64,000 nt of DNA from Octopus vulgaris (Eukaryota). The stretch spans positions 89,962,001-90,026,000 of the forward strand of contig OX597822.1 in NCBI GenBank assembly GCA_951406725.2. The letters run 5' to 3'. The notes under the pieces were generated by a model. The model was not told the origin of the DNA, made no database searches, and worked only from the letters and a program-made list of their open reading frames with translations. Shown here piece by piece: positions 3,001 through 50,278 of this stretch. The position numbers were made by a program, and so were the translations under genes. Numbering within the stretch: the first letter of the stretch is position 1; each line of letters starts with the position of its first letter.

Positions 3001-3215
3001 GCAATGAATCTGTGTATTTTAAAAATTTCTACAGCCAATTATATATAACATATTTGATTTAAATGTGTTTAACTTGTGTTTCTTCTGCATAGACAGCTAG
3101 CAATTGCATTTGCATCCAGTTACTTTCAACTGGTTATTAGTCTATGCAACTTCATTCGAAGTCCCAACACTGATGTGGTCTGAAGTGAATTGAGTCCTCA
3201 TCTTGTTTATTGTTA

Positions 3216-3259
3216 ACACAACATTTCGGCTGATATACCCTCCAGCCTTTATCAGGTGT
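3216..3259 (-). ncRNA. Minimal type-I hammerhead ribozyme motif (decayed)
   Basis: ACAC-CUGAUAA-AGGCUG(gaggguauau)CAGCC-GAAA-UGUU-GUGU. Stem I ACAC/GUGU and stem II GGCUG/CAGCC pair. Confidence 0.7.
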
Positions 3260-3320
3260 CTTGGGGAAATTTCGAACCTGGGTTCTCATTCCTAAGGTAT
3301 TTTCCGATGATGATGATGTT

Positions 3321-3352
<32 letters not shown>

Positions 3353-3366
3353 TGTTGTTGTTGTTG

Positions 3367-3920
3367 GGTGAGAGAGCAGTGCATGCCATCAAAGTGACAC
3401 TGGGGTAAAATTTACAAGGCCCAGTTTATCCATCATGACTACCCGTCTGATAAGGGTACACTAGGCACATGCTTCACAACCATATGTGCGCGACATGGTG
3501 ATCTCATATCAAAATAAACAGTGCATGACCTTGCAGGTGAGGCCCAGTTAGAATTTTCTTGTGGTCAAGTAACCCATCCCGCTCAAAAGGTCCTTGAATA
3601 AGGATTGTTTAAGGATGTAGAATGAAGCACCCATGTTTCCAAAGGTGAATTATCCAAACCTCTAAGAATTCCTTTCAACACAGCTATGATGCTCCTCCAC
3701 TACTTCTGCTCATGATCAGAGATGCGCATATTGTCAGCCAACTAAAGGACATGATCAACTGGTTAAGGTCAAACAACTGACAAGCAGATCTGTGATATTG
3801 AGCAGAATATTTACTGTAGCCCATCTTTTATACCAAGGCAAAATAATGTAAAAGATAACACTTCCAATCAGTTAAGATCAGAATCCATGAGAGCCACTGT
3901 CTGGTACTGCATCAGAGCAT
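3367..3920 (-). mobile_element. Unclassified interspersed repeat embedded in triplet microsatellite
   Basis: Shares about 260 bp with 31840-32100. Both copies abut (ATT)n/(GTT)n tracts. Confidence 0.65.
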
Positions 3921-4020
3921 TATTATTATTATTATTCAGATCACTGCTTGGAATCGAACTCGGAATCTTGGGGTTAGTAGCTCGTGCTTAACCACTACGT
4001 CACTATGCCACTATGCCCAT

Positions 4021-4300
4021 AGGCATATGGCGTAGTGGTTAAGAGTGTGGGCTACCAACCCCAAGATTCCGAGTTCGATTCCAGGCAGTGACCTGAATAA
4101 TAATAATAATGATAATAACAACAAAATCAAAAAATACCTTAGGAATGAGAACCCAGATTCAAAATTTCCCCCAAGACACCTGATGAAGACTGGAGGATAT
4201 ATCAGCCAAAATGTTGTGTTAACAACAAACAAGATGAGGACAAATATCCATCAATTGTAAATAATGTACATAATTCCTCATCTCTTAAATATAGAACTGA
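4021..4300 (+). mobile_element. tRNA-head/hammerhead-tail short element, plus copy
   Basis: A box TGGCGTAGTGG, B box GAGTTCGATTCC, then (AAT)n, then a tail containing a hammerhead motif. Confidence 0.75.
4176..4219 (+). ncRNA. Minimal type-I hammerhead ribozyme motif (decayed)
   Basis: ACAC-CUGAUGA-AGACUG(gaggauauau)CAGCC-AAAA-UGUU-GUGU. Its core mutations differ from those of the 3216 copy. Confidence 0.7.
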
Positions 4301-16584: not shown

Positions 16585-18947
16585 CACCAAAGAGCTGAGG
16601 TATTTCGGATTGCCAGTGTGTCAGAGAAAATAGTGATGTTACAGGAGAGAAATGTGTCTGCATGGATGATGGGGCACTTGCTTTTACTGTTAGTGAAAAG
16701 AAAGAGGCTTGGAGAAGCCATTATGAAAGACTGCTGAATGAGGAGAATGAATGGGAGGAGGAGAGCCTGCCAAATGTTGACCCAGTAGAGGGACCAGCCA
16801 CCCGAATAGAGAGCTCCCTTGTAGTTAAGGCAATTAAGGATATGAAACCAGGTAAAGCCCCCGGCCCATCAGGAATCACTGCTGAGATGCTTAAAACAGC
16901 TGGCTATGTGGGCTATGGCCTAGTCACCTGCATTGTAAACCAGGTAGTTCATAATGGAGTCATACCCAATGACTGGCGTAGCAGCACCATAGTCAACTGC
17001 TACAAGGGTAAGGGTGATGCTCTAGATAGAAATAACTACAGGGGTATCAAACTGTTGGATCAGGTGATGAAGATCACAGAGAGGGTCATAACCCATCACA
17101 TTAGGGAGAGAATTTGCTTAGATGAAATGCAGTTCGGTTTTGTGCCGGGTAGAAGCACCACTGATGCTATATTCCTGGTCCGACAACTGCAGGAGAAGTA
17201 CCTAGCTAAAGATAAACCCCTCTACAGAGCTTTTGTGGACTTGGAGAAAGCCTTTGACAGGGTTCCCCCGTTCCCTTATCTGGTGGTCGATGCGGAAACT
17301 GGAGATTGACGAATGGCTAATAAGGGCTGTACAGGCTCTATACAGAGAGGCTGTCAGCAAGGTTAGGATTGGCAACGAATATAGTGAAGAATTCCGGGTA
17401 GAAGTAGGTGTGCACCAAGGCTCAGCCCTCAGTCCCTTTTTATTCATCATAGTCCTCCAGGCAATAACAGAGGAATTCAAAACAGGATGCCCCTGGGAGC
17501 TCCTCTATGCTGATGACCTGGCTCTCATAGCAGAATCACTACCGGAACTAGAAAAGAAATTTCAGGTGTGGAAGCAAGGGTTAGAATCAAAGGGCCTTAG
17601 AGTAAATGTAGCAAAGACCAAAGTTATAGTAAGCAGAAAGGCGAACTCAGCACACACCCCCTCGGGCAGGTGGCCCTGCTCGATCTGTAGGAAAGGTGTA
17701 GGTAGAAACTCCATAAGATGCACCCAATGTAAGCTATGGACGCACAAGAGGTGCAGCAACATTAAAGGGAAATTAACAGATAAGATAGCTTTCATGTGCG
17801 GCAGATGCACAGGGACAATAGACACCACAGACACTCAGAAAACAGATTCCATCACACTCCAGGGAGAGAAACTAGAAGTAGTTGATAGTTTCCGCTACCT
17901 GGGTGACCAAGTTAGTAGTGGAGGTGGATGCACAGAGAGTATCACCACTAGAATACGAATAGCCTTGGCAAAGTTCAGAAAGCTCCTACCCCTACTGGCG
18001 ACAAAGGGTCTCTCCCTCAGAGTGAAAGGTAGATTGTATGATGCATGTGTGCGAACTGCCATGCTTCACGGTAGTGAAACATGGGCTGTGACTGCAGAGG
18101 ACATGCGTAGACTTGAAAGAAATGAAGCTAGCATGATCCACTGGATGTGTAATGTCAGTGTGCACACACGACAGAGTGTAAGCACCCTGAGAGAAATGCT
18201 GGATATAAGAAGCATCAGATGTGGTGTGCAAGAGCGACTCTTGCGATGGTATGGTCATGTGCTGCGGATGGATGAGGAGAGATGTGTGAAGAAGTGCCAC
18301 TCCCAAACAGTTGAAGGTATCAGGGGGAGAGGTAGACCCAGGAAGACATGGGATGAGGTAGTCAAGCATGACCTCAGAGCGTTGGGCCTCACTGAGGCAA
18401 TGGCGAAGGACTGCAAAGACCCGGGCTGCTTCCTACATCAGTTCCGCATAGCCCCTGCCCATTCAAAGTACCCCGGATCCCAGAACGTCCCACTGTGCTT
18501 GAGGAGACCTGTTGAGTCAAGTACATGAACATGAACGTCAAAATAAATATCAATGGAAATAGTAGTTGTGATGCCTGTGCCGGTGGCACATAAAAAGAAC
18601 TATCCGAACATGGCCGATGCCAGCGCCGCCCCGACTGGCTTCTGTGCCAGTGGCACATAAAAAGCACCATCCGAACGTGGCTGATGCCAGCGCCGCCCCG
18701 ACTGGCTCCTGTGCCGGTGGCACATAAAAAGCTCCAACCGACTGTGACCGATGCCGCCCCCCCCCCTGGCACCTGTGCAGGTGGCACATAAAAAGCACCC
18801 ACTACACTCGCGGAGTGGTTGGCGTTAGGAAGGGCATCCAGCCGTAGAAACTCTGCCAGATCAGACTGGAGCCTGGAGCAGCCCCTGGCTTCCCAGACCC
18901 CGGTCGAACCGTCCAACCCGTGCTAGCGCGGAAACCGGATGTTAAAC

Positions 18948-20072: not shown

Positions 20073-21353
20073 TCCCGACCCCACCCCCAGCACCCCCACC
20101 CTTCTCCGTTTGGCTGAGCTCGTCCTCACCCTCAATTGCTTCACGTTCGCCGGGGAAACGTACCAACAGGTGTCCGGGGTCGCGATGGGAACTAGGATGG
20201 GCCCCAATTTCGCCAATCTCTTTCTTGGCTACATTGAGGCCCAAGTGTTCTCCCAGTTCTCTGGGCCGACCCCGAACTATACGGTCGCTATATCGACGAC
20301 TGTGTAGGTGCCACCTCCCTTTCCCGGGAACGTCTCGGCCAATTCATCTCTTTCCTTTCCAACTTTCACCCCTCTCTTCAATTCACCTCCACCATCTCCA
20401 ACACCTCTGTCAACTTCCTTGACATCTCTCTCCGCATCGATCACCCCTCCAGCTCTCTCACCACCACCGCCTTCTTTAAACCTACGGATTCCCACCTCTA
20501 TCTCAACTTCTCTTCCTCCCACCCCTTCCACACCAAACGAGCCATCCCCTACTCCCAGTTCCTCCGCCTCCGACGTTTGTGCAGCCGCGACCAGGATTTC
20601 GAGACCCAATCTCAATACCTGGCCCGCATGTTCAGACTCCGAGGTTACCCACCCACACTCCTCTCTGATGCCCTCACCCGCGCCCGTCGCATCGACCGCA
20701 CTACCGCCTTGTCTCCTTCCCCCCGCCCACCCCCCAACCGCACCCCCTTCCCCCTCCTTTTCCACCCCTCTACCCTACCCCTTCGTCGCAAGATACTACG
20801 TGCCTTCCGTCGCCTCCAGCTTGATCCCACCACCCGCCCCATTTTCCCTAACCCACCCCTGTCCTCTTTCAAACGAGCCCGCAATCTGCGTGACCTCCTG
20901 GTCCACAGCACCCTCTCCCCTTCCCCCTCAGCCCCACACGGATCATTCCCTTGCTCTAGATCCCGCTGCAACACTTGCCCCTTCATCACCAACACCACCG
21001 CTGTCACCGGCTCCAACCTGCATACTGTACGCATTAGGCACTCTTTTACGTGCACCTCGTCTGGCCTTATTTACTGCATTAAATGCAACCTATGCGGGAT
21101 GCTGTATGTAGGTCAGACGGGACGCCGGTTGTCCGACCGTTTCACTGAACACTTGAGGGACGTTCGCCTACACTCTTTTTCTCCCGTCGCACGCCACTTC
21201 CGCTCGGCCGGCCATTCCCGAGATGACATCTCAGTGTTTGGTCTCGCCCCCCACAATGGTCGCCCACTTTCCAGGCTCCACTTGGAGCAACGCTACATCT
21301 TCACCCTACAAACTACCACCCCACACGGACTTAACACAGCCCCCTCCTCTTGA
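20071..21353 (+). CDS. Penelope RT and GIY-YIG endonuclease ORF (partial, one frameshift in the C-run near 20270)
   Basis: Joins ORF 20029-20307 to the frame of ORF 20577-21353. Confidence 0.85.
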
Positions 21354-25847: not shown

Positions 25848-26259
25848 TTTTTACTTGTTTCAGTCATTTGACTGCGGCCATGCTGGAGCACTGTCTTTAG
25901 TCGAGCAACTTGACCCCGGGACTTATTCTTTGTAAGCCTAGTACTTATTCTATCAGTCTCTTTTGCCGAACCGCTAAGTGACAGGGACATAAACACACCA
26001 GCATCGGTTGTCAAGCAATGCTAGGGGGACAAAGACAGACACACAAACACACATGCACACATACATATATATATACATATATACGACGGGCTTCTTTCAG
26101 TTTCCGTCTACCAAATCCACTCACAAGGCTTTGGCCGGCCCGAAGCTATAGAAGAAGACACTTGCCCAAGGTGCCATGCAGTGGGACTGAACCCGGAACC
26201 ATGTGGTTGGTAAGCAAGCTTACCACACAGCCACTTACCACACAGCCACTCCTGCGCCT
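25848..26259 (-). mobile_element. tRNA-derived SINE, family A
   Basis: Reverse complement of 2421-2788. Confidence 0.9.
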
Positions 26260-31796: not shown

Positions 31797-31839
<43 letters not shown>

Positions 31840-31840
<1 letters not shown>

Positions 31841-32100
31841 GAGTGAGAGAACAATGCATGCCATCAAAGTGACACTGGGGTAAAATATACGAAGCCCAGT
31901 ATACCCATCATGACTACCCATCTGATAAGGGTACACTAGGCACATGCATCACAACCATATGTGCACGACATGGTGATCTCATATCAAGATAAACAGCACA
32001 TGACCTTGCAGGTGGGGCCCAGTTAGAATTTTCTTCAGGTCGAGTAACCCATTCCACTCAAAAGGTCCCTAAATAAGGGTTGTTTAAGGATGTTGAACGA
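31840..32100 (-). mobile_element. Second copy of the unclassified repeat at 3367
   Basis: gagtgagagaacaatgcatgccatcaaagtgacactgggg..., adjacent to a long (ATT)n tract. Confidence 0.7.
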
Positions 32101-32228
32101 AATATATAATGCATATATATATATATATATATATATGGAGAGAGTTCACGAAAAAAAACACAAGATGAAGACAGGTGGTGTAGGAAACAAACAGATGTAT
32201 TAGTATAAAGCTCAGGAATTGAAAAGGT

Positions 32229-32264: not shown

Positions 32265-33754
32265 GGACAAAGAAAAAAACAAGGAGAGAAAAAAAATGTG
32301 TGTAGTGGCTACCAATCTATCATGGCGACTGCTGGACAGAAGGGTCACACAGCAGAGCGAAGAAGTAGAGGAGATAACAAAGTAAAGATGACCCCCAAAA
32401 CGAAGGTGCTTGTGTGTATAAAAGAGTATGCATGTGCGTGTGAAAGAGGGCTGCTGGTCTTGACGCGTGTGTGTGTATATGTATAAGTGTGAAAATGTGG
32501 GGATGGGAATTGGTCAGTGCTGGTGTGTGGGTGGTGTGTTGTGATGTGATGTGTAATGTTGTATGGTGTAGTGTGGTGTGGTATGATGTTGTTGGGAGGT
32601 GGGGAGGTGAGAGTGAGGAAAGCACAGGTGGGGTGTAGGTTAGGCTGAGGGCTGGGGTAGAGGTGGGGTATGTGGGTAGGCAGAGGTTGAGGGTAGAGGT
32701 GGGGTTTGTAGGTAGGCAGAGGGTGTAAAAGGATGGGATGGGGGTGGGAAGGATAGGGAAGGTGGAGTAGGAATGTGTAGGGGTGGGGTGGGCTTATGGG
32801 CGAGGGTTGACAATGAAGGGGAAGGGGAAGGTGGATATGTGAGAAGAGAGAGAGAGAGAGAAGAGTGAAAAAAGAGAGTAAGAGAGAAAGAGAGAGTGAA
32901 AGAGTAAGAGAGAAGAGAATAAGAGAGAAGAGAGAAAAAGAGAAGAGAGAAAGAGAGTAAGAGAGAAGAGAGAAAGAGAGTAAGGGTGAAGAGAAGTAAG
33001 AGTTGGAGCAAGAGAGGAGAGGTGGGTGGGAGGAAGTAGGAGGGAGGGAGAGAGAGGCAAAGGGAGGAGGTTCGATGAAGAGGGGAGGAGAGTTGAGCCC
33101 AAATCGCATAAAGGAGCGAAGAGAGAAGATTAATCCCTGTTCACAGCGCAAACGGGAGTCAGGATGGCCTATGTGCAAGGACAATCCAAACACCGACAGG
33201 TGTTGCAAAGAGTGACCAGTAGAGCGGAAATTGCATGAGACTGGGGTGTCATTGCCAAGGCGGATGTCTCGGAGGTGTTCCATGAACCGGTCAGCCAAGC
33301 AGTGTCCCGTTTGTCCGATGTACAGAGAGAGCAGGAGATGCAATAGATGATATTGGTAGAGGTGCAGGTGAAGGAGTCGGTGATGCGATAGGGTCGATGA
33401 TGGGTGCCGGTGAGGAGGGTGGTGTTGGAGAGGTAAGGGCAAGTGCAGCAGCGTGGGTGGGAGCAAGGAAACGAGCCAGGTTGGGAGGTAGGGTTGGGGA
33501 AGAAGCTGTGGAGCAAGAGGTATCGTAGATCGTGGGCTCGTTTGAAGGAGGCGAGGGGTCAGTTAGGGAAGATGTGTGAAGTGGATGGGTCGGACTGGAG
33601 ATGCCGGAAAGCTTGGAGAATGGTGCGTGGGTGGCAGGTGAGGGGAAAGGGGGGCGGGAGACTGCAGGGTGAATTCGGGGGGAGAGAGCAGATGCACAGT
33701 CCACGGAACGTGCTCTGGCAAAGGTGGCGTGGATAGTGGTGAGGGGAAATCTAT

Positions 33755-33985
33755 GCGGCGAGCTGGCAGAAACGTTAGCATGTCGGGCGAAATGCTTAGT
33801 GGTATTTCGTCTGCTGTTACGTTGTGAGTTCAAATTCCGCCGAGGTCGACTTTACCTTTCATCCTTTCGGGGTCGATAAATCAAGTACCAGTTACGCACT
33901 GGGGTCGATGTAATCGACTTAATACCTATGTCTGTCCTTGTTTGTCCCCTCTGTGTTTGGCCCCTTGTGGGTAGTAAAGAAATAA
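33755..33985 (+). mobile_element. SINE family B inserted in the Penelope ORF
   Basis: ggcgagctggcagaa...gagttcaaattc head. Imperfect target duplication gtgaggggaaatctatg / gtgagggggatatccatg. Confidence 0.85.
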
Positions 33986-34922
33986 GTGAGGGGATATCCA
34001 TGTAGGATGAAGTGGCGAGCCATGAGTTGAGACTGAGTCTCAAAGTCATGGTCGTCAGTGCAAAGCCTGTGCAGACAGAGGAATTAGGAATAGGGGATGG
34101 AAAGATTAGTGTGTTTGGGTAGGAAGAGGAGAAGTTGAGGTATGAGTGTGAGTCTGTGTGTTTGTAGTGGATGGAGGTGGTAAGAGTAGAATGATGAATG
34201 CTGACCGAAATGTCACGAAAGGAGACACAGGTGTCAGAGATAGTGCAGGAGAAGTGGAGGGCAGGATGGAAAGATTTGACAAAAGAGAGGAAGGAGTCTA
34301 GCTGTTCGCGGAAGAGTGAGGTGGCACCGATACAGTTGTCAATATAATGGCCATATAGTTTGGGAGTTGGACCAGTGAAACTTGAGAATATTTGGGCCTC
34401 AACATAGCCAACGAACAGGTTTGCATAGTTGGGGCCCATTCTCGTTCCCATGGCCACTCCCAAATTGCTTGTAGAAATCGCCCGCAAACGAGAAGCAGTT
34501 GAGTGAGAGGACAAGTTTGGCCAGACGAACGAGTGTGGAGGTGTCGGGTTGGGGATTGGGTTGGAGGTCCAGGAAGTGTTTCAGTGCACGCTGCCCCTCG
34601 TGGTGAGGGATCACAGTGTAAAGGCTCTGGATGTCCAGAGTGAAGAGAAGTTTAGAGGGGCCAGGAGGGAAGGAGAAAGAGTTGAATAGATGAAAAGCAT
34701 GGTTGGTGTCAAGGATGTGAGAAGGGAGAGAACCCACTAGGGGGCAAGGACACGGTCGAGATATTTAGAGATAAGCTCGGTGGAGCGGTTACAGGCAGAG
34801 ACGATGGGCGGCCAGGGTTGTGGAGGAGACGGGAGGACGAGATGAGGTCATGGATGGTAGAGGAGACCGTCTGTTGGTAGCTGGGGGTGGTGTCATGAAG
34901 TTGGTGGAGAGCTTTGGATATA

Positions 34923-35376: not shown

Positions 35377-35780
35377 AGGCATAGGAGTGGCTGTGAGGTA
35401 AATAGCTTCCTTATGAACAACATGGTTCCGGATTCCATCCCACTGCATGGCCATCTCAGACAAGTGTCTTCTACTCTCGCCTCGTGCCAACCAAACCTTG
35501 TGAATGGATTTGATAGACGCAAACTGAAAGAAGCCCGTTGTATATGTATATATATATGTTTGTGTGTGTGTGTTTCTGTGTCTGTGCCCCCCACCCCCAC
35601 CCCCAACATCGCTTAACAGTCGATGTTAGTGAGTCTACGTTTCTGAAACTTAGCAGTGCAGGAAACGAGTCCGATCGAATAAGTACTAGGCTCACAAATA
35701 ATAAGTACTAGGGTCGATTTGTGAAACTAACAGCTGTGCTATAGCATGGCTGCTGTGAAATGATTGAAACAAATAAAAGT
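35377..35780 (+). mobile_element. tRNA-derived SINE, family A (diverged)
   Basis: Colinear with 2421-2788. Confidence 0.85.
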
Positions 35781-35863
35781 AAAATAAATATATTATACAT
35801 AATATATATATATTTTTTATACATATGTATATGCATAATAAATATTTATATAATATATAGATA

Positions 35864-37559: not shown

Positions 37560-38230
37560 TGGCCTCCATGTATACTATGGAAGCACCCTGCATGTTGTTC
37601 AATATGTCCATTGAAATCGCCAGCCACAAAGAGAAGGTCCTGGTCATTCATCGACGAGGTAGTCAGCAAGAGGGTGTCATAAAATCAGTCTTTCTGTTCA
37701 TCAGGTAGCCCCGACTGAGGGGCGTAGGCTGAGATAATGGTTGCTAACCCATAATTTAGCACTAATCTAATGTTAAGTATTCTATCGCAGATTCTGACTA
37801 CCTCGATTACCTTATCTACCCATTTCTCTGCAAGAAGTATACCCACGCCCCCAACCCCATCAGTGTTCCCTGCCCAGAAGATCTTGTATCTATGTTCTTT
37901 GCCTGTGAGGAACCTAGTAGCACTGCCTCTCCACCTTACTTCTTGGATGCAGCACTGATCTACACATCTCCATTCAAGCATCTTAACAATCTCACCAGAC
38001 CTACCTTTCAGTGTGCCCACATTGAGTGTGCCAACTCTGAGGGTGTGGGAGGTGAGGGCCCATGTGACCCTGGGATGGGAGACAGCAGCATCATGTACTT
38101 GAAAAGAAAGCTCGCATTTGGCAGAATTCATAAACAAACAACAGCCTTCAAGCTGCATACACTACACCATTTTTATGCGCTATATGATCACAACCTTACA
38201 TAGGAGACAGACCCTAAGTAGGGGGTGGGG
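37560..38230 (-). mobile_element. RTE LINE 5' fragment (AP-endonuclease domain)
   Basis: LRVGTLNVGTL, CIQEVRWRG, GVGGVGIL, IISAYAPQ and VAGDFNGH motifs. Confidence 0.9.
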
Positions 38231-38485: not shown

Positions 38486-38885
38486 AGGCATAGGAGTGGC
38501 TGTGTGGTAAGTAGCTTGCTTATGAACCACATGGTTCTGGTTTCAGTCCCACTGCATGGCACCTTGGGCAAGTGTCTTCTACAATAGCCTAGGGCCGACC
38601 AAAGCCTTGAGTGGATTTGGTAGACGGAAACTGAAAGAAGCCTGTCGTATATATGTATACATATATAAGTTTGTGTGTGTGTGTATGTTTATGTGTCTGT
38701 GTTTGTCCCCCCAACATCGCTTGACAACCGATGCTGGTGTGTCCCCGTAACTTAGCGGTTCAGCTAAAGAGGCCGATAGAATAAGTACTAGGCTTACAAA
38801 GAATAAGTCCTAGGGTCGATTTGCTCGACTAAAGGTGGTACTCCAGCATGGCCACAGTCAAATGACTGAAACAAGTAAAAGAGAA
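38486..38885 (+). mobile_element. tRNA-derived SINE, family A
   Basis: Colinear with the other family A copies. Confidence 0.9.
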
Positions 38886-39302
38886 AGAGAAATGAATAAT
38901 TGACGATGTGACAAAAGTAAATGGATGCATGAATAAGTGACAATAAGGGTATTCGTGTAAACTTAAGTTAGTTTTTAAGATGGAAGACGAAAACTATGTT
39001 TACAGAACTAAGAGGGGATTATGATCTGCACTGAAATAGAGGTGATAGATGTATTGAGTTGCAAAAAAACAAGATTCCTTATCTGAACAACATCTGGATT
39101 TGTATTCTTTTGGTGAGGTTATTGAAATGTAGAAGGAATCTGAGAGAGCAGGTTCATATAGAGTGGGATGGTGGAGGAGGAGGTAAGTAATTGGAGAAGT
39201 GAGTGGTTTATATATAAATAATATATATCAAATATATAATAAAAATAAAAATACATATAATATATAAATAATATATATACAGAGAATGTACATACATATA
39301 TA

Positions 39303-39726: not shown

Positions 39727-41390
39727 AAATGGATGAGGGCAACTGTGTGAAAAAGTGTCAAACCCTAGCAGTTGAGGGAGAGATAGGTGGTGAAGCACAA
39801 CCTTCGAACAATGGGCCTCACCGAGGCAATGACTAGTGACCAAGACCTTGGGAAGTGCTTGAGAAGACCCTGCAAGGCAGGTGAGACCATAACCAGTGGC
39901 CTACGCCAGCGGTGTAAACAGCCTACTTAAGTGTTGCTTGCAAAGACCTGTCGAGGCAATTGAAATCACAATTAAAATCAAATTCGCTAACATGGCCAAT
40001 GACAGCAATGCCTGGCTGGCACATGTGCCAGTGGAACATTAAAAGCACCATCCGAGTGTGATCATTGACAGGGCCGCTGACTGGCTCCCATGCCAGTGGC
40101 ACATAAAAAGCAGCATTCGAGTATGACTGTTACCAGTGTAGCCTTACTGGCACTAGTGCTGGTGGCACTTGAAAAACAACATTTGAGTGAGGTCGTTGCC
40201 AATGCTGCTGGACTGGCTCCTGTGCAGGTGGTACTTAAGAAATGCCATTTGAGTGTGGCTGTCACCTGTACTGCCTGACTGGCCCTTGTGCCAGTGGCAC
40301 GTAAAAGCACCCACAACATTCTCACAGTGGTTGGCATTAGGAAGGGCATCCAGCTGTAGAAGCTCTGCCAGATCAGATTGAAGCCTGGTGCAGCCATCAG
40401 GCTTGCCAGTCCTCAATCAAACAGTCCAAGCTTTTACTCTGAGTGAGAAGCCCTTTGTCACCAGAAGAGGTAAGAGCTCTCTGAACTTAGCCCAGGCTAT
40501 TCTTATTCTAGTAGCTACACTTTCAGTGCACCCTCCCCTGCTACTGACTTGGTCACCTAGGTAAGAGAGGCTATCAACTACTTCTAGTTTTTCTCCCTGG
40601 AATATGCCGGAAGTTGTACTCTGCACATTTTCAGTGTTATTTATTGCTCCTGAGCATCTGCCATATACAAAAACTATCCTCCCAGTTACCCTTCCTTTGA
40701 TATTGCTGCACCTCTTATGTGTCCATAGTTTACACTGGGTACATCTTATAGAGTTTCTACCTACGCCTTTTCTACAGATCGAGAAGGGCCATTAACCTGA
40801 AGGGATTTGTGGTTTGCCTGCCTTCCTACTTATTAGGACTTCGGTTTTAGCTAGATTGACTCTAAGGCCCTTCGATTCTAATCCTTGCTTCCACACCTGA
40901 AACTTCTCTAATTCTGACAGTGACTCAGCAATTAGAGCAAGATCATCAGTATAGGGAAGCTCCCAGGGGCAGCCTGTCTTGAATTCCTCCGTTATTGCTT
41001 GGAGGACTATGATAAATAGGAGAGGACTGAGGACTGAACGTTGGTGGACCCCTACCTCTACCCTGAATTCTTCACTGTACTCATTGCCAGCCCTCACCTT
41101 ACTGACAGCGTCCTTGTACATGGCTTACACGGCTCTAACTAACCATTCATCTATCCCTAGTTTCCTCATTGACCACCAGATAAGGATTCAGGGGACGCTG
41201 TCAAAGGCTTTCTCCATGTCAATGAAAGCCAGGTACGGGGGCTTATCTTTGGCTATGTATTTCTGCTGCAGCTGTCTAACCAAAAATATGGCATCAGTGG
41301 TGCTTTTCCATGGCACGAAACCAAACTGCATCTCATTTAAACTGACTCTCTCCCTAATTAGTTGGGCTATGACCCTCTCCGTGACCTTCA
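39727..41390. mobile_element. Rearranged RTE LINE: RT on minus (40430-41390) fused to the 3' end on plus (39727-40428)
   Basis: Minus: MQFGFVP..AFD..GVHQ..YTDD..KGFSLRVK. Plus: MDEG..3' UTR repeats. Confidence 0.85.
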
Positions 41391-41714
41391 TAATATATAT
41401 ACATATACAACATATACTATATATAAATATAAAATATATGTATATTATACAATATATATATATATAAAATATATGTATATTATACAATATATATATATTA
41501 TATAATATATATATATATATATACATAAAATATATATATATAAAATACATGTACATTATGTATATTATACAATATGTATATTATATATAATATATATATA
41601 TATACACATATATATATATATACATAATATATATATATATACATAATATATATATGTATATATTTATATATATACATAATGTATATAGATATATAATGCA
41701 TATAGATACATATA

Positions 41715-46419: not shown

Positions 46420-46843
46420 TAGGTGCAAGAGTGGCTGTGTGGTAAGTAGCTTGCTTACCACCCACATGGTTTCGGGTTCAGTCCCACTGCGTGGCATCTT
46501 GGGAAAGTGTCTTCTGCTATAGCCTCGGGCCGACCAATGCCTTGTGAGTGGATTTGGTAGACGGAAACTGAAAGAAGCCTGTCGTATATATGTATATATA
46601 TATATATATTTATGTGTGTGTATATGTTTGTGTGTCTGTGTTTGTCCCCCCCAACATCGCTTGACAACTGATGCTGGTGTGTTTACGTCCCCGTCACTTA
46701 GCGGTTCTGCAAAAAGAGACCGATAGAATAAGTACTGGGCTTACAAAGAATAAGTCCCGGGGTCGATTTGCTCGACTAAAGGTGGTGCTCCAGCATGGCT
46801 GCAGTCAAATGACTGAAACCAGTAAAAGAGTAAAGAGTAAGAG
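46420..46843 (+). mobile_element. tRNA-derived SINE, family A
   Basis: Colinear with the other family A copies. Confidence 0.9.
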
Positions 46844-47279
46844 TATATATAAATTAATAATATAAGTTTAAATAATAGGTGTGTATATATTTGAACCATT
46901 TTCAATTTTTAATTCTAGTAGTCATAGTGTGTACTAGCATTATGTATACAAGTTAGCATGAAGTTTTTTTTAGTATATATTACTTAATTAGAATAAAATT
47001 TAACTTAGATGTTTATTAAATAAATAATTTAATTTAATGTATATAGATTAAATTATAGTATTTTAGTTTTCACCTTATGTATATTTTGTATTTTATATAT
47101 ATATATATATTTATTTGTTTTAAATATTTTAAGTACTTGTATTTTAATTTTCTAGTAATGATATATTATAGTTTGTCATTCTTTTCTTATATAAGTTAAA
47201 ATCTATTTTCATAGATATAATAAATATTTATACCATAATATATTTAAGATATTTCGTGTTTGTATTTTATGATACATAT

Positions 47280-47940
47280 CAAGAAATCCTCTTGCGAGCG
47301 TGACCTAGGCATCACTGTCAGCAGTGATTTGCGTTGGACAAAGCATATCTCTAAAATTGTCAAGAAGGCTGAGGGTGTCTTGGCATCACTCAGCAAGACT
47401 TTTGTTAGCCGCTCTCCAGCCATCTATTTAAAACTGTATACAGCTATGGTACGACCACACTTGGAATTCGCATCATCAGTTTGGAAACCCTATCTTGCTC
47501 AGAACATTGACCTCCTGGAATCTGTCCAGAGACGTGCAACCAAACGCATACCCTCCATCAGACACCTACCATATTCTGAGTGCCTTGTTTCCCTGGGCAT
47601 GGATTCACTGAAGCTCCGGCGTCTGGCAACGGACTTGGTAAACACCCACAAGGTTATCAACCACCTCACCAACAACAACACTGAACACCTTTTTGATCTC
47701 CATGTGTCTAACACACGTGGACATGCCTACAAAGTCAGAAAACAGCACAGCTCCCATGACTTTCGGAAACATCTTTTCACGCTCAGGGTTGCTGAAGCGT
47801 GGAACAAACTGCCTGCGTCAGTTGTTGACTGCCATGACACTGCATCTTTAAGGCCCTCATGCTTTCCGAAATCCGCCAAAACTACACCTGATTATATATA
47901 CACTTTAGATGAGTTGTAGTGCACCTGAGCACTGTACACA
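47280..47940 (+). mobile_element. CR1-group LINE 3' end
   Basis: ERDLGI, VRPHLEFASSVWKPY, LESVQRRATK, TRGH and RVAEAWNKLP motifs; short UTR and (ATT)n tail. Confidence 0.9.
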
Positions 47941-48170: not shown

Positions 48171-48409
48171 TTTTACCAATTATATACTTTTTATTTATTA
48201 TTTAGTACTTTACTTAATTATTGGTATATGTTTTTATCGCATATTTAAATTTTTTTCTATATCATTAATTATATCATTGTTGAATTGATAAAAGGTAGTT
48301 CTTCTCTAATTTATATACATATATTATATATTGTGATATTTGATTTAGTATTACTAAATTGAATTTTTCCCTGTAAGTTTGGAATAATATTCCCTAATAT
48401 TATTATCAT

Positions 48410-48473
<64 letters not shown>

Positions 48474-48509
48474 CTATCTACATATACATTTATATATATG
48501 TATATATAT

Positions 48510-50278
48510 ATTGGAATAGTACGGTAGACAAACCCATTAGAGCAAAGAAACAGGCCTGGAAAGCCTGGCGGGATGGGGGTAGCAGGGAACTGTACCAGGT
48601 AGCCAAAACGGAGGCTGGGCAGCAGGTATACATAGCCAAGGGCGAAGCAGAAAAGAAGTTTGCCAATGTCCAGCGACGTGAGGACCAAAGAACTGAGGTA
48701 TTTCGGATTGCTAGACACTGTGTGAGAGAATATTGTGATGTCACAGGAGAGAAATGCATCTGCATGGATGATGGTGCACTTGCTTTCAATGTTTCTGAAA
48801 AGAAAGAGGCTCGGAGAAGCCATTATGAAAGACTGCTGAATGTGGAGAATGAATGGGAGGAGGAGAGCCTGCCAAATGTTGACCCAGTAGAGGGACCAGC
48901 TATCCCAATAGACAGCTCCCTAGTAGATAAAGCAATTAAGGGTATGAAGCCAAGAAAAGCCCCCCGGCCTATCTAGAATCACTGATGAGATGCTTAAAAC
49001 ATCTGGTGGTGTGGGCTATGGCCTAGTCACCCGCATTGTAAACCAGGTAGTTCATAATGGAGTCATACCCAATGACTGGTGTAGCAGCACCATAGTCAAC
49101 TGCTACAAGGGTAAAGGTGATGCTCTAGATAGAAATAACTACAGGGGTATCAAACTGCTGGATTAAGCGATGAAGGTCACAGAGTGGGTCATAGTCTAAC
49201 TCATTAGGGAGAGAGTCTGCTTAGATGAGATGCAGCTCGGTTTTGTTCTGGGTAGAAGCACCACTGATGCCATATTCCTGGTTCAACAACTGCAGAAGAA
49301 ATACTTAGCTAAAGATAAACCCCTCTACTTAGCTTTTGTGGACTTGGAGAAAGCCTTTGACAGGGTCCCCCAATCCCTTATCTGGCGAACAATGTGGAAA
49401 CTGGAGATAGACGACTGGTTAATAAGGGCTGTACAGGCCGTTAGTAAGGTTAGGATTGGCAACGAATATAGTGAGGAATTCCGGGTAGAAGTAGGGGTCC
49501 ACCAAGGTTCAGCCCTCAGTCCTCTTCTATTCATCATAGTCCTCCAGGCAATAACAGAGGAATTCAAGATGGGTTGCCCCTGGGAGCCCCTCTATGCTGA
49601 ACATAAGAAGCATCGGATGTGGCATGCAAGAGAGACGTTTGTGCTGGTATGGTCATGTACTACGGATGGATGAGGAGAGCTGTGTGAAGAAGTGCCACTC
49701 CCACACAGTTGAAGGAATCCGGGAGAGAGGTAGACTCAGGAAGACATGGGACAAGGTGGTCAAGCATGACCTTCGAATGTTGGGCCTCACAGACCGAGAT
49801 CTCTGGAGATATGCTGTGACTGTGAAGACCTGACAAATAATGTGACTTCATGGCTGTTTCCTGCACCAGTTTCACATAGCAGCCCCAGCCCATCCAAAGT
49901 ACCTTGGATTGCAGAACGGCCTGCTGTGCTTACCTTGGATCATAGGGTGACCTGCTGTGCTTGAGGAGACTTATTGAGTCGAGTACATCAACATCAAAAT
50001 AAAAATAAAATGGAAATTGTAGTTGTGATACCTGTGCTGGTGGCACGCAAAAAGCACCATCCGAATGTAGCCAATGCCAGCATTGCCTTGACTGGCTTCC
50101 ATGCCAGTGGCACGTAAAAAGCACCCACGGAGTGGTTGGCGTTAGGAAGGGCATCCAGCTGTAGAAACACTGCCAGATGAGATTGGAGCCTAGTGCAGCT
50201 TCCTGGCTTCTCAGACCCTGGTCGAACCGTCCAACCCATGCTAGCATGGAAAACAGATGTTAATGATGATGATGATGA
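48510..50278 (+). mobile_element. RTE LINE copy with stop codons and an internal deletion
   Basis: Colinear with 16585-18980, but jumps from WEPLYA to NIRSI near 49598; (GAT)n tail. Confidence 0.92.

Follow-up and report, generated by a model that had tools for sequence, protein, structure and literature searches.

The closest described system is the Poseidon element of Anolis carolinensis (PAc; PMC11167929). As far as the available text of that report describes it, Poseidon has a single ORF of ~835 amino acids which encodes a reverse transcriptase (RT) with a C-terminal endonuclease and starts at a hammerhead, and its copies have two 3′ ends with an optional tail, inverted 5′-truncated partners, and partial tandems. 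All of these features are shared by the octopus repeat family described below, in which the endonuclease is a putative one. The Anolis protein is reported there to cut and extend both target strands (Frangieh et al. 2024, PMC11167929), with reverse transcription starting at two internal sites, which define the tail. Inverted 5′ copies and the tail are given as general features of Penelope-like elements (PLEs) in the text seen of Craig et al. (PMC8557442); the tail is optional and 30-40 nt long. The SINE-like Sm-alpha and Sj-alpha of Schistosoma are likewise tRNA-related, apparently Pol III-transcribed, and hammerhead-bearing, but they are presented in the accessible text as non-autonomous tandem repeats with canonical ribozymes, not as the terminal repeat of a coding element (PMC6765202, PMC2770079). 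Short hammerhead repeats from PLE terminal repeats (pLTRs) have been described as non-LTR retrozymes in a preprint whose main text contains neither the term "tRNA" nor "Pol III" (bioRxiv 10.64898/2026.07.22.740005). Retrozymes are defined there as tandem arrays, whereas the octopus family consists mostly of inverted pairs and singles, with arrays only occasional; small retrozyme-like tandem arrays of hammerhead units were seen at locus L087. Full-text literature searches turned up no paper on a PLE with a tRNA-derived pLTR head or on a coding retroelement driven by Pol III; Repbase, Dfam, SINEBase, paper supplements, and subscription journals lie outside these searches and may hold the family, possibly as a SINE. 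The available texts of PMC13282606, PMC4758252, and PMC6685494 contain nothing on the octopus pLTR family, and the second of these lists the octopus OR2 SINE as a CORE SINE.

The window analyzed here is a 64,000-nt stretch of the Octopus vulgaris genome (contig OX597822.1, positions 89,962,001 to 90,026,000). In the original prediction, a pair of repeats in this window was described as a candidate independent, non-coding, Pol III-driven SINE with a tRNA-like head and a hammerhead tail, copied by a Penelope-type RT. We consider the best explanation, at a probability of roughly 0.55, to be that the repeat is the pLTR of a decayed Penelope/Poseidon-type element, whose tRNA-derived head is likely an internal Pol III promoter that sets the 5′ end of the RNA.

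The right copy (4021..4299, plus strand) bears a tail and is 94.6% identical to the family majority. It opens with the head (4021..4095), in which 4028..4038 and 4072..4082 fit the box consensus and are taken to be the A and B boxes (tRNA positions 8-18 and 52-62). An (AAT)n/(AAC)n spacer follows (4096..4124), whose length varies among copies of the family. The first ~50 codons of a parent ORF occupy 4145..4299, where 4145 is the first in-frame ATG, and this portion contains a 1-nt insertion near 4168. Within it lie a minimal type-I hammerhead motif (4175..4219) and the Penelope "tail" (4267..4299), the segment between two family-wide 3′ ends at unit positions ~245-254 and ~278-284, ~27-30 nt apart. 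The head with its two boxes, the (AAT)n, and the hammerhead were thus all located as predicted, but the unit is not non-coding, since the parent ORF begins at 4145 and crosses the hammerhead. The two copies are inverted about a short palindrome (4012..4027) with a 2-nt center at 4019-4020, in agreement with the inversion about 4019 that had been proposed; the autonomous element has the same palindrome where its UTR meets the head.

On the minus strand, the left copy comprises the head and (AAT)n (3919..4018), with a 9-nt duplication near its start, and a 3′ part (3194..3312) that contains a hammerhead motif (3216-3260), is tail-less, and ends near unit position 221-234. The two parts are separated by a 550-bp unrelated repeat (3369..3918, minus strand), a later insertion in the copy's microsatellite and not part of the element. 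The description of a ~280-bp unit present twice therefore holds for the right copy only, as the left one is split by the insertion and microsatellite and stops ~45 nt before the 3′ end of its partner.

Several other repeats were observed in the window. The ~550-bp repeat begins at a fixed 5′ position, immediately downstream of (AAT)n, and finishes with (AAT/AAC)n. It is also present at seven other loci (L017, L080, L129, L134, L270, L288, and L334) and as a partial copy at 31827-32101, and it frequently sits inside the pLTR's own microsatellite. No long ORF was found in its three sense frames and Rfam gave no match; it looks like a microsatellite-targeting non-autonomous retroposon. An abundant SINE-like repeat of ~400 bp lies at ~2400-2800, with relatives near 25849-26259, 35383-35794, 38492-38886, and 46421-46835 (72-83% identity between copies). 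Fragments of presumably RTE-like LINEs are located at 16599-18528, 37685-38161, 40417-41580, and 48398-49673, and one that is presumably CR1/L2-like at 47248-47919. At 20238-21353 (plus strand) and ~32345-34764 (minus strand) lie pieces of a different PLE type, with long low-complexity tracts after them. These PLE pieces were rejected as partners of the unit, with which they have no DNA in common, and no hammerhead passed a motif scan of them.

By its sequence, the head is tRNA-derived. When the searched loci were scanned with a profile built from 10 host tRNA genes, both window heads were recovered (E = 8e-4 and 1e-3 for that search space), and the nearest tRNA was tRNA-Arg(TCG) (z = 8.5) among 30 host tRNA hits, a set with only six isotypes. 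Both boxes are intact and spaced as in a tRNA, whereas the cloverleaf is decayed and the acceptor stem broken. ARAGORN at default settings and Rfam called neither a tRNA nor a hammerhead in the unit, and miRNA matches were dismissed as chance hairpins. No tRNA-like match was present downstream of the ORF in 36 relatives with an ORF end and at least 250 nt beyond it; across 79 relative loci there were two strong tRNA-like matches, both upstream of truncated ORFs.

The hammerhead motif is present in the family majority, and its core is intact in 17 of 74 spanning copies, the main non-CpG core variant falling at the free position 7. As had been claimed, the two window copies carry different core mutations and share one CpG change: each has a core G-to-A, at different positions. 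With its core G-to-A and the CpG change, the right-copy motif is predicted to be inactive. The ribozyme reconstructed from the two copies is identical to the column majority of 30 genomic copies. Like the minimal metazoan PLE hammerheads, as shown in the available text of Cervera and De la Pena (2014, PMC4209133), it has a 5-bp helix I, an extra base between 9 and 10.1, a G10.1-C11.1 pair, a palindromic 15.2-16.2, and no stable helix III; helix II is 5-6 bp here and 7-8 bp there, which is no real difference. Its activity is predicted to require a dimer or the assistance of a protein, and in a two-copy co-fold the minimum-energy structure was not the active dimer.

The family is large. An exact 19-mer from the head occurs 5,629 times in the host genome (reversed control, 0) and one from the tail 6,712 times (reversed control, 1), while corresponding 19-mers from the end of the parent ORF and from its UTR occur 788 and 1,003 times. 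Solo units outnumber ORF-attached units by about five to one. We sampled 70 head loci in genome order along one contig, leaving out one without a forward alignment (L211) and not taking separately two head matches within ~110 nt of a sampled one; the samples span the first 19-37 Mb of that contig, with a few duplicated loci included. A tail lies downstream on the same strand in 58 of the 70 loci, and on either strand in 63, so that the expected co-occurrence of head and tail is borne out. In the 12 head loci that have no tail downstream, what follows the microsatellite is either another inserted repeat or unrelated DNA, and no body is common to these loci; a separate donor SINE sharing the head was rejected on this basis. 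The best-matching copies differ by 4-12% from the majority, every copy seen is broken, and the ORF is known solely as a column majority. Because even the best copies are this diverged and no intact ORF was seen, the family looks inactive by its sequence.

Two loci extend beyond the usual 3′ end of the unit, and an extension search from them led into a Penelope-type N-terminus and on into RT and endonuclease regions. The majority monomer is 2,662 nt (~2.66 kb) long and consists of head, (AAT)n, ORF, a ~29-nt UTR, and the next head. Its one RT-endonuclease ORF of 835 amino acids (an 851-codon open frame in the column majority) starts inside the unit at position 125, corresponding to window position 4145, and crosses both hammerhead and tail. 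Among 20 extended loci anchored on the RT, 10 continue as far as the end of the ORF, and nine of these have a head ~29 nt after the stop. In 30 UTR-anchored loci, an intact head comes next in 27, a deleted head in two, and neither in one. The unit thus stands both before and after the ORF, the tandem or partial tandem arrangement of pLTRs. The 3′ end of the unit is early coding sequence of the PLE ORF and is neither LINE-derived nor a simple repeat. The tail of the unit therefore does run into an autonomous PLE, as the proposal of a Penelope-type RT as copy maker had anticipated, and does not match a LINE 3′ end. A short intron in the tail was considered and rejected, as the frame is open without splicing.

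The encoded protein has 283 homologs at E ≤ 1e-20. Its closest homologs are four ENA proteins (P0001-P0004; 52-66% identity), one of which (P0002) has an N-terminal motif that matches the hammerhead-overlapping N-terminus of the parent. It is 37.5% identical over 808 amino acids to an 836-aa Anolis protein (P0043), which we infer from species, length, and N-terminus to be PAc. In a quick tree, it nests among RT homologs including the Anolis protein, apart from a Naiad-like control. RVT_1 was matched by two of three proteins from natural fragments. The C-terminus aligns with that of the Anolis protein, including two conserved motifs (E = 1e-23); the Pfam GIY-YIG models matched neither this C-terminal fragment nor the Anolis protein, and the fragment had no PDB match. 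The host genome also contains a young family of Naiad-like PLEs in which many 781-aa frames are intact (e.g., L097 and L102); this family does not carry the unit. Naiad-like PLEs were discarded as partners, the unit being found at none of 30 GIY-YIG loci.

Solo (n = 60) and ORF-attached (n = 29) units show no fixed difference, and the majority base is shared throughout except for two ties. Because the head sits at a fixed junction with the ORF end and no bases are diagnostic of solo or attached units, the unit is very probably a pLTR that belongs to a decayed retroelement of the Penelope/Poseidon type, and not a separate SINE. Two further features of the family were observed. The last 14 nt of the UTR form an imperfect mirror of the first 10 nt of the head (L188-L196), possibly the scar of a fold-back that captured the head. 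Five loci (L122, L126, L130, L143, and L144) carry internal deletions that fuse the first ~118 nt past the tail back to position 112 of the pLTR, the junction lying in a short word common to both sides.

Head-to-head pairs are ordinary in this family. Of 69 loci, 47 have an inverted copy lying directly against the 5′ end, and where the pair could be classified, a tailed copy was joined to a tail-less one in 29 of 36 cases (P = 1e-4). The window pair, with its tailed right copy and tail-less left copy, shows the same pattern, which is a normal Penelope signature.

The 5′ ends of copies are concentrated at the head. In tail-anchored loci (n = 48), ends occur at a flat rate of 0.0032-0.0040 per nt in five bins across the unit, but 11 of the 17 copies still at risk end between -14 and +10 (0.026 per nt, sevenfold over background, P = 2e-8). 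In head-anchored loci (n = 69), 48 start in the same interval, 12 farther upstream, and nine inside the head. Two independent loci start at the head and run at least 900 nt into the ORF. From these ends, the RNA of the element rather probably began at the head. In about 6% of each of three raw RNA-seq runs from a single study (X21-X23), reads matched the repeat in both mate orientations, their starts did not pile up at the head, and 83-89% of these reads ran into unlike flanks. This pattern fits copies embedded in host transcripts and is neutral on Pol III.

The peak of 5′ ends could also be produced by RT stalling or fold-back, since a stable 9-bp hairpin (-9.6 kcal/mol) lies at the UTR/head junction and a weaker palindrome at position 134 also collects partner ends, if few. 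The head of the same pLTR would then be the passive remnant of a tRNA or SINE that had been captured, and the RNA would come from Pol II or host read-through. The junction hairpin ranks in the top 0.6% of the monomer's 30-nt windows, and short fold-backs are centered on the junction at four loci (L212, L220, L418, and L432). However, stem II of the hammerhead is nearly as stable (-8.1 kcal/mol) and draws no peak, the end hazard being flat over 161-210. Furthermore, 23 of the 69 head-anchored starts fall at +1 to +8, which excludes the left arm of the palindrome from them. The mirror of the head start at the UTR end may have been left by an old fold-back at an RNA 5′ end, in which case it would not be the cause of that end, and the A and B boxes have stayed intact while the cloverleaf decayed. 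We regard this passive-relic explanation as the main rival and a serious one, if rather unlikely.

The composition of the monomer also bears on the choice between a passive head and an active one. A run of four T residues is the Pol III terminator, and the transcripts of this polymerase are normally confined to short non-coding RNAs. The 2,662-nt majority contains no run of four or more T residues in the sense orientation, against 30 on the antisense strand. Synonymous shuffles of the majority contain on average 3.0 such runs (P = 0.02). Across 66 kb of natural fragments of the family, the density is 0.32 runs per kb, compared with 1.7-5.9 per kb for the host genome's other retroelements. In 79 relatives found in other eukaryotes it is 4.1 per kb, and the Poisson P against the 50 of them that are T-matched is 5e-4. 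A Naiad-like majority built alike has six in 1.85 kb. Under Markov nulls that keep the di- or trinucleotide make-up of the element, on the other hand, the absence is not significant (P = 0.07 and 0.19), which counts in favor of a passive head. GGGG is likewise absent from the majority monomer, and five of the 79 relatives, all of ≤1.6 kb, have no T run. The evidence from T runs is therefore moderate, with P ranging from 0.0005 to 0.19 depending on the null model. Taken together, the pile-up of 5′ ends, the intact A and B boxes, and the absence of TTTT indirectly suggest transcription by Pol III, possibly of the whole element. Given that the RNA began at the head, we consider it probable that Pol III made it.

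In the reading that we prefer, the pLTR with an active promoter head, the RNA would start at the tRNA-derived head and would likely be made by Pol III. By analogy with the available account of Anolis Poseidon (PMC11167929), the PLE protein would cut both target strands and start reverse transcription inside the RNA at two sites, so that each insertion would be built from two cDNAs whose far ends are joined to each other. If the RNA begins at the head, both cDNAs would run off after at most ~280 nt, yielding solo pairs that look like SINEs. The rarer ORF-bearing copies would arise only from read-through RNA that spans the ORF and the downstream repeat, and the absence of TTTT may have let Pol III read through the ORF. 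A stronger form of this model is an autonomous coding Penelope with a captured tRNA promoter, transcribed by Pol III from end to end with terminators purged from its 2.5-kb ORF, so that the LINE-like parent would be its own SINE. RNAs made by Pol III lack a cap and are translated poorly, which counts against a Pol III-driven coding element, and we put this stronger form forward only as a tentative possibility.

The unit resembles classical tRNA-derived SINEs, with which it shares a tRNA head with A and B boxes, a length of ~280 nt, thousands of copies, and a sharp 5′ end. On an alternative reading, it would be an independent Pol III SINE made of a tRNA head and a PLE hammerhead end, with its own master copies, moved by the PLE protein in trans, and the ORF-attached heads would be secondary chimeras. 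The roughly fivefold excess of solo units fits this, chimeras of ORF pieces and heads exist, and such a SINE may have been the ancestral source of the PLE's head. In contrast to a classical SINE, however, the octopus unit lacks a LINE-derived 3′ end or simple-repeat tail, usually occurs in head-to-head pairs, and is part of an autonomous element. A single fixed ORF-end/head junction recurs in 27 of 30 loci, no diagnostic bases mark a subfamily, and the ORF starts inside the unit. By analogy with Anolis, moreover, the RT would need RNA downstream of its start site, which is missing in solos that end at the tail (PMC11167929, available text). The non-autonomous SINE put forward in the original prediction is thus largely refuted, the whole unit including its head being the terminal repeat of an autonomous element, and we consider it improbable. 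It is very improbable that the RNA begins at the head through processing by an RNase P-type activity upstream of the tRNA-like fold or through a Pol II start in the pLTR as in Drosophila Penelope, because, although the boundary coincides with a mature tRNA 5′ end and pLTRs are reported, in the text available, to contain a start site and internal promoter (PMC8557442), the acceptor stem is broken, ARAGORN at default settings calls no tRNA in the head, and the missing T runs would be left unexplained.

Two features set the octopus element apart from Anolis Poseidon as described in the available text (PMC11167929): its pLTR opens with a tRNA-derived head that has A and B boxes and is followed by (AAT)n, and its monomer has no TTTT. 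Judged by sequence, what is unusual here is a tRNA-derived pLTR head on a coding PLE, 5′ ends piled up at that head, and a TTTT-free monomer; the paired arrangement is ordinary.

Retroelements are usually sorted by polymerase, with coding elements assigned to Pol II (R2 to Pol I) and SINEs to Pol III. If true, a coding PLE driven by a tRNA promoter would break this rule, and it would raise the question of how an uncapped RNA gets translated. Even without Pol III, thousands of genomic copies in this family would show the two-start-site, two-strand mechanism, so far seen in vitro for one lizard element. The family also cautions that what a repeat library files as a "SINE" may in fact be a solo pLTR.
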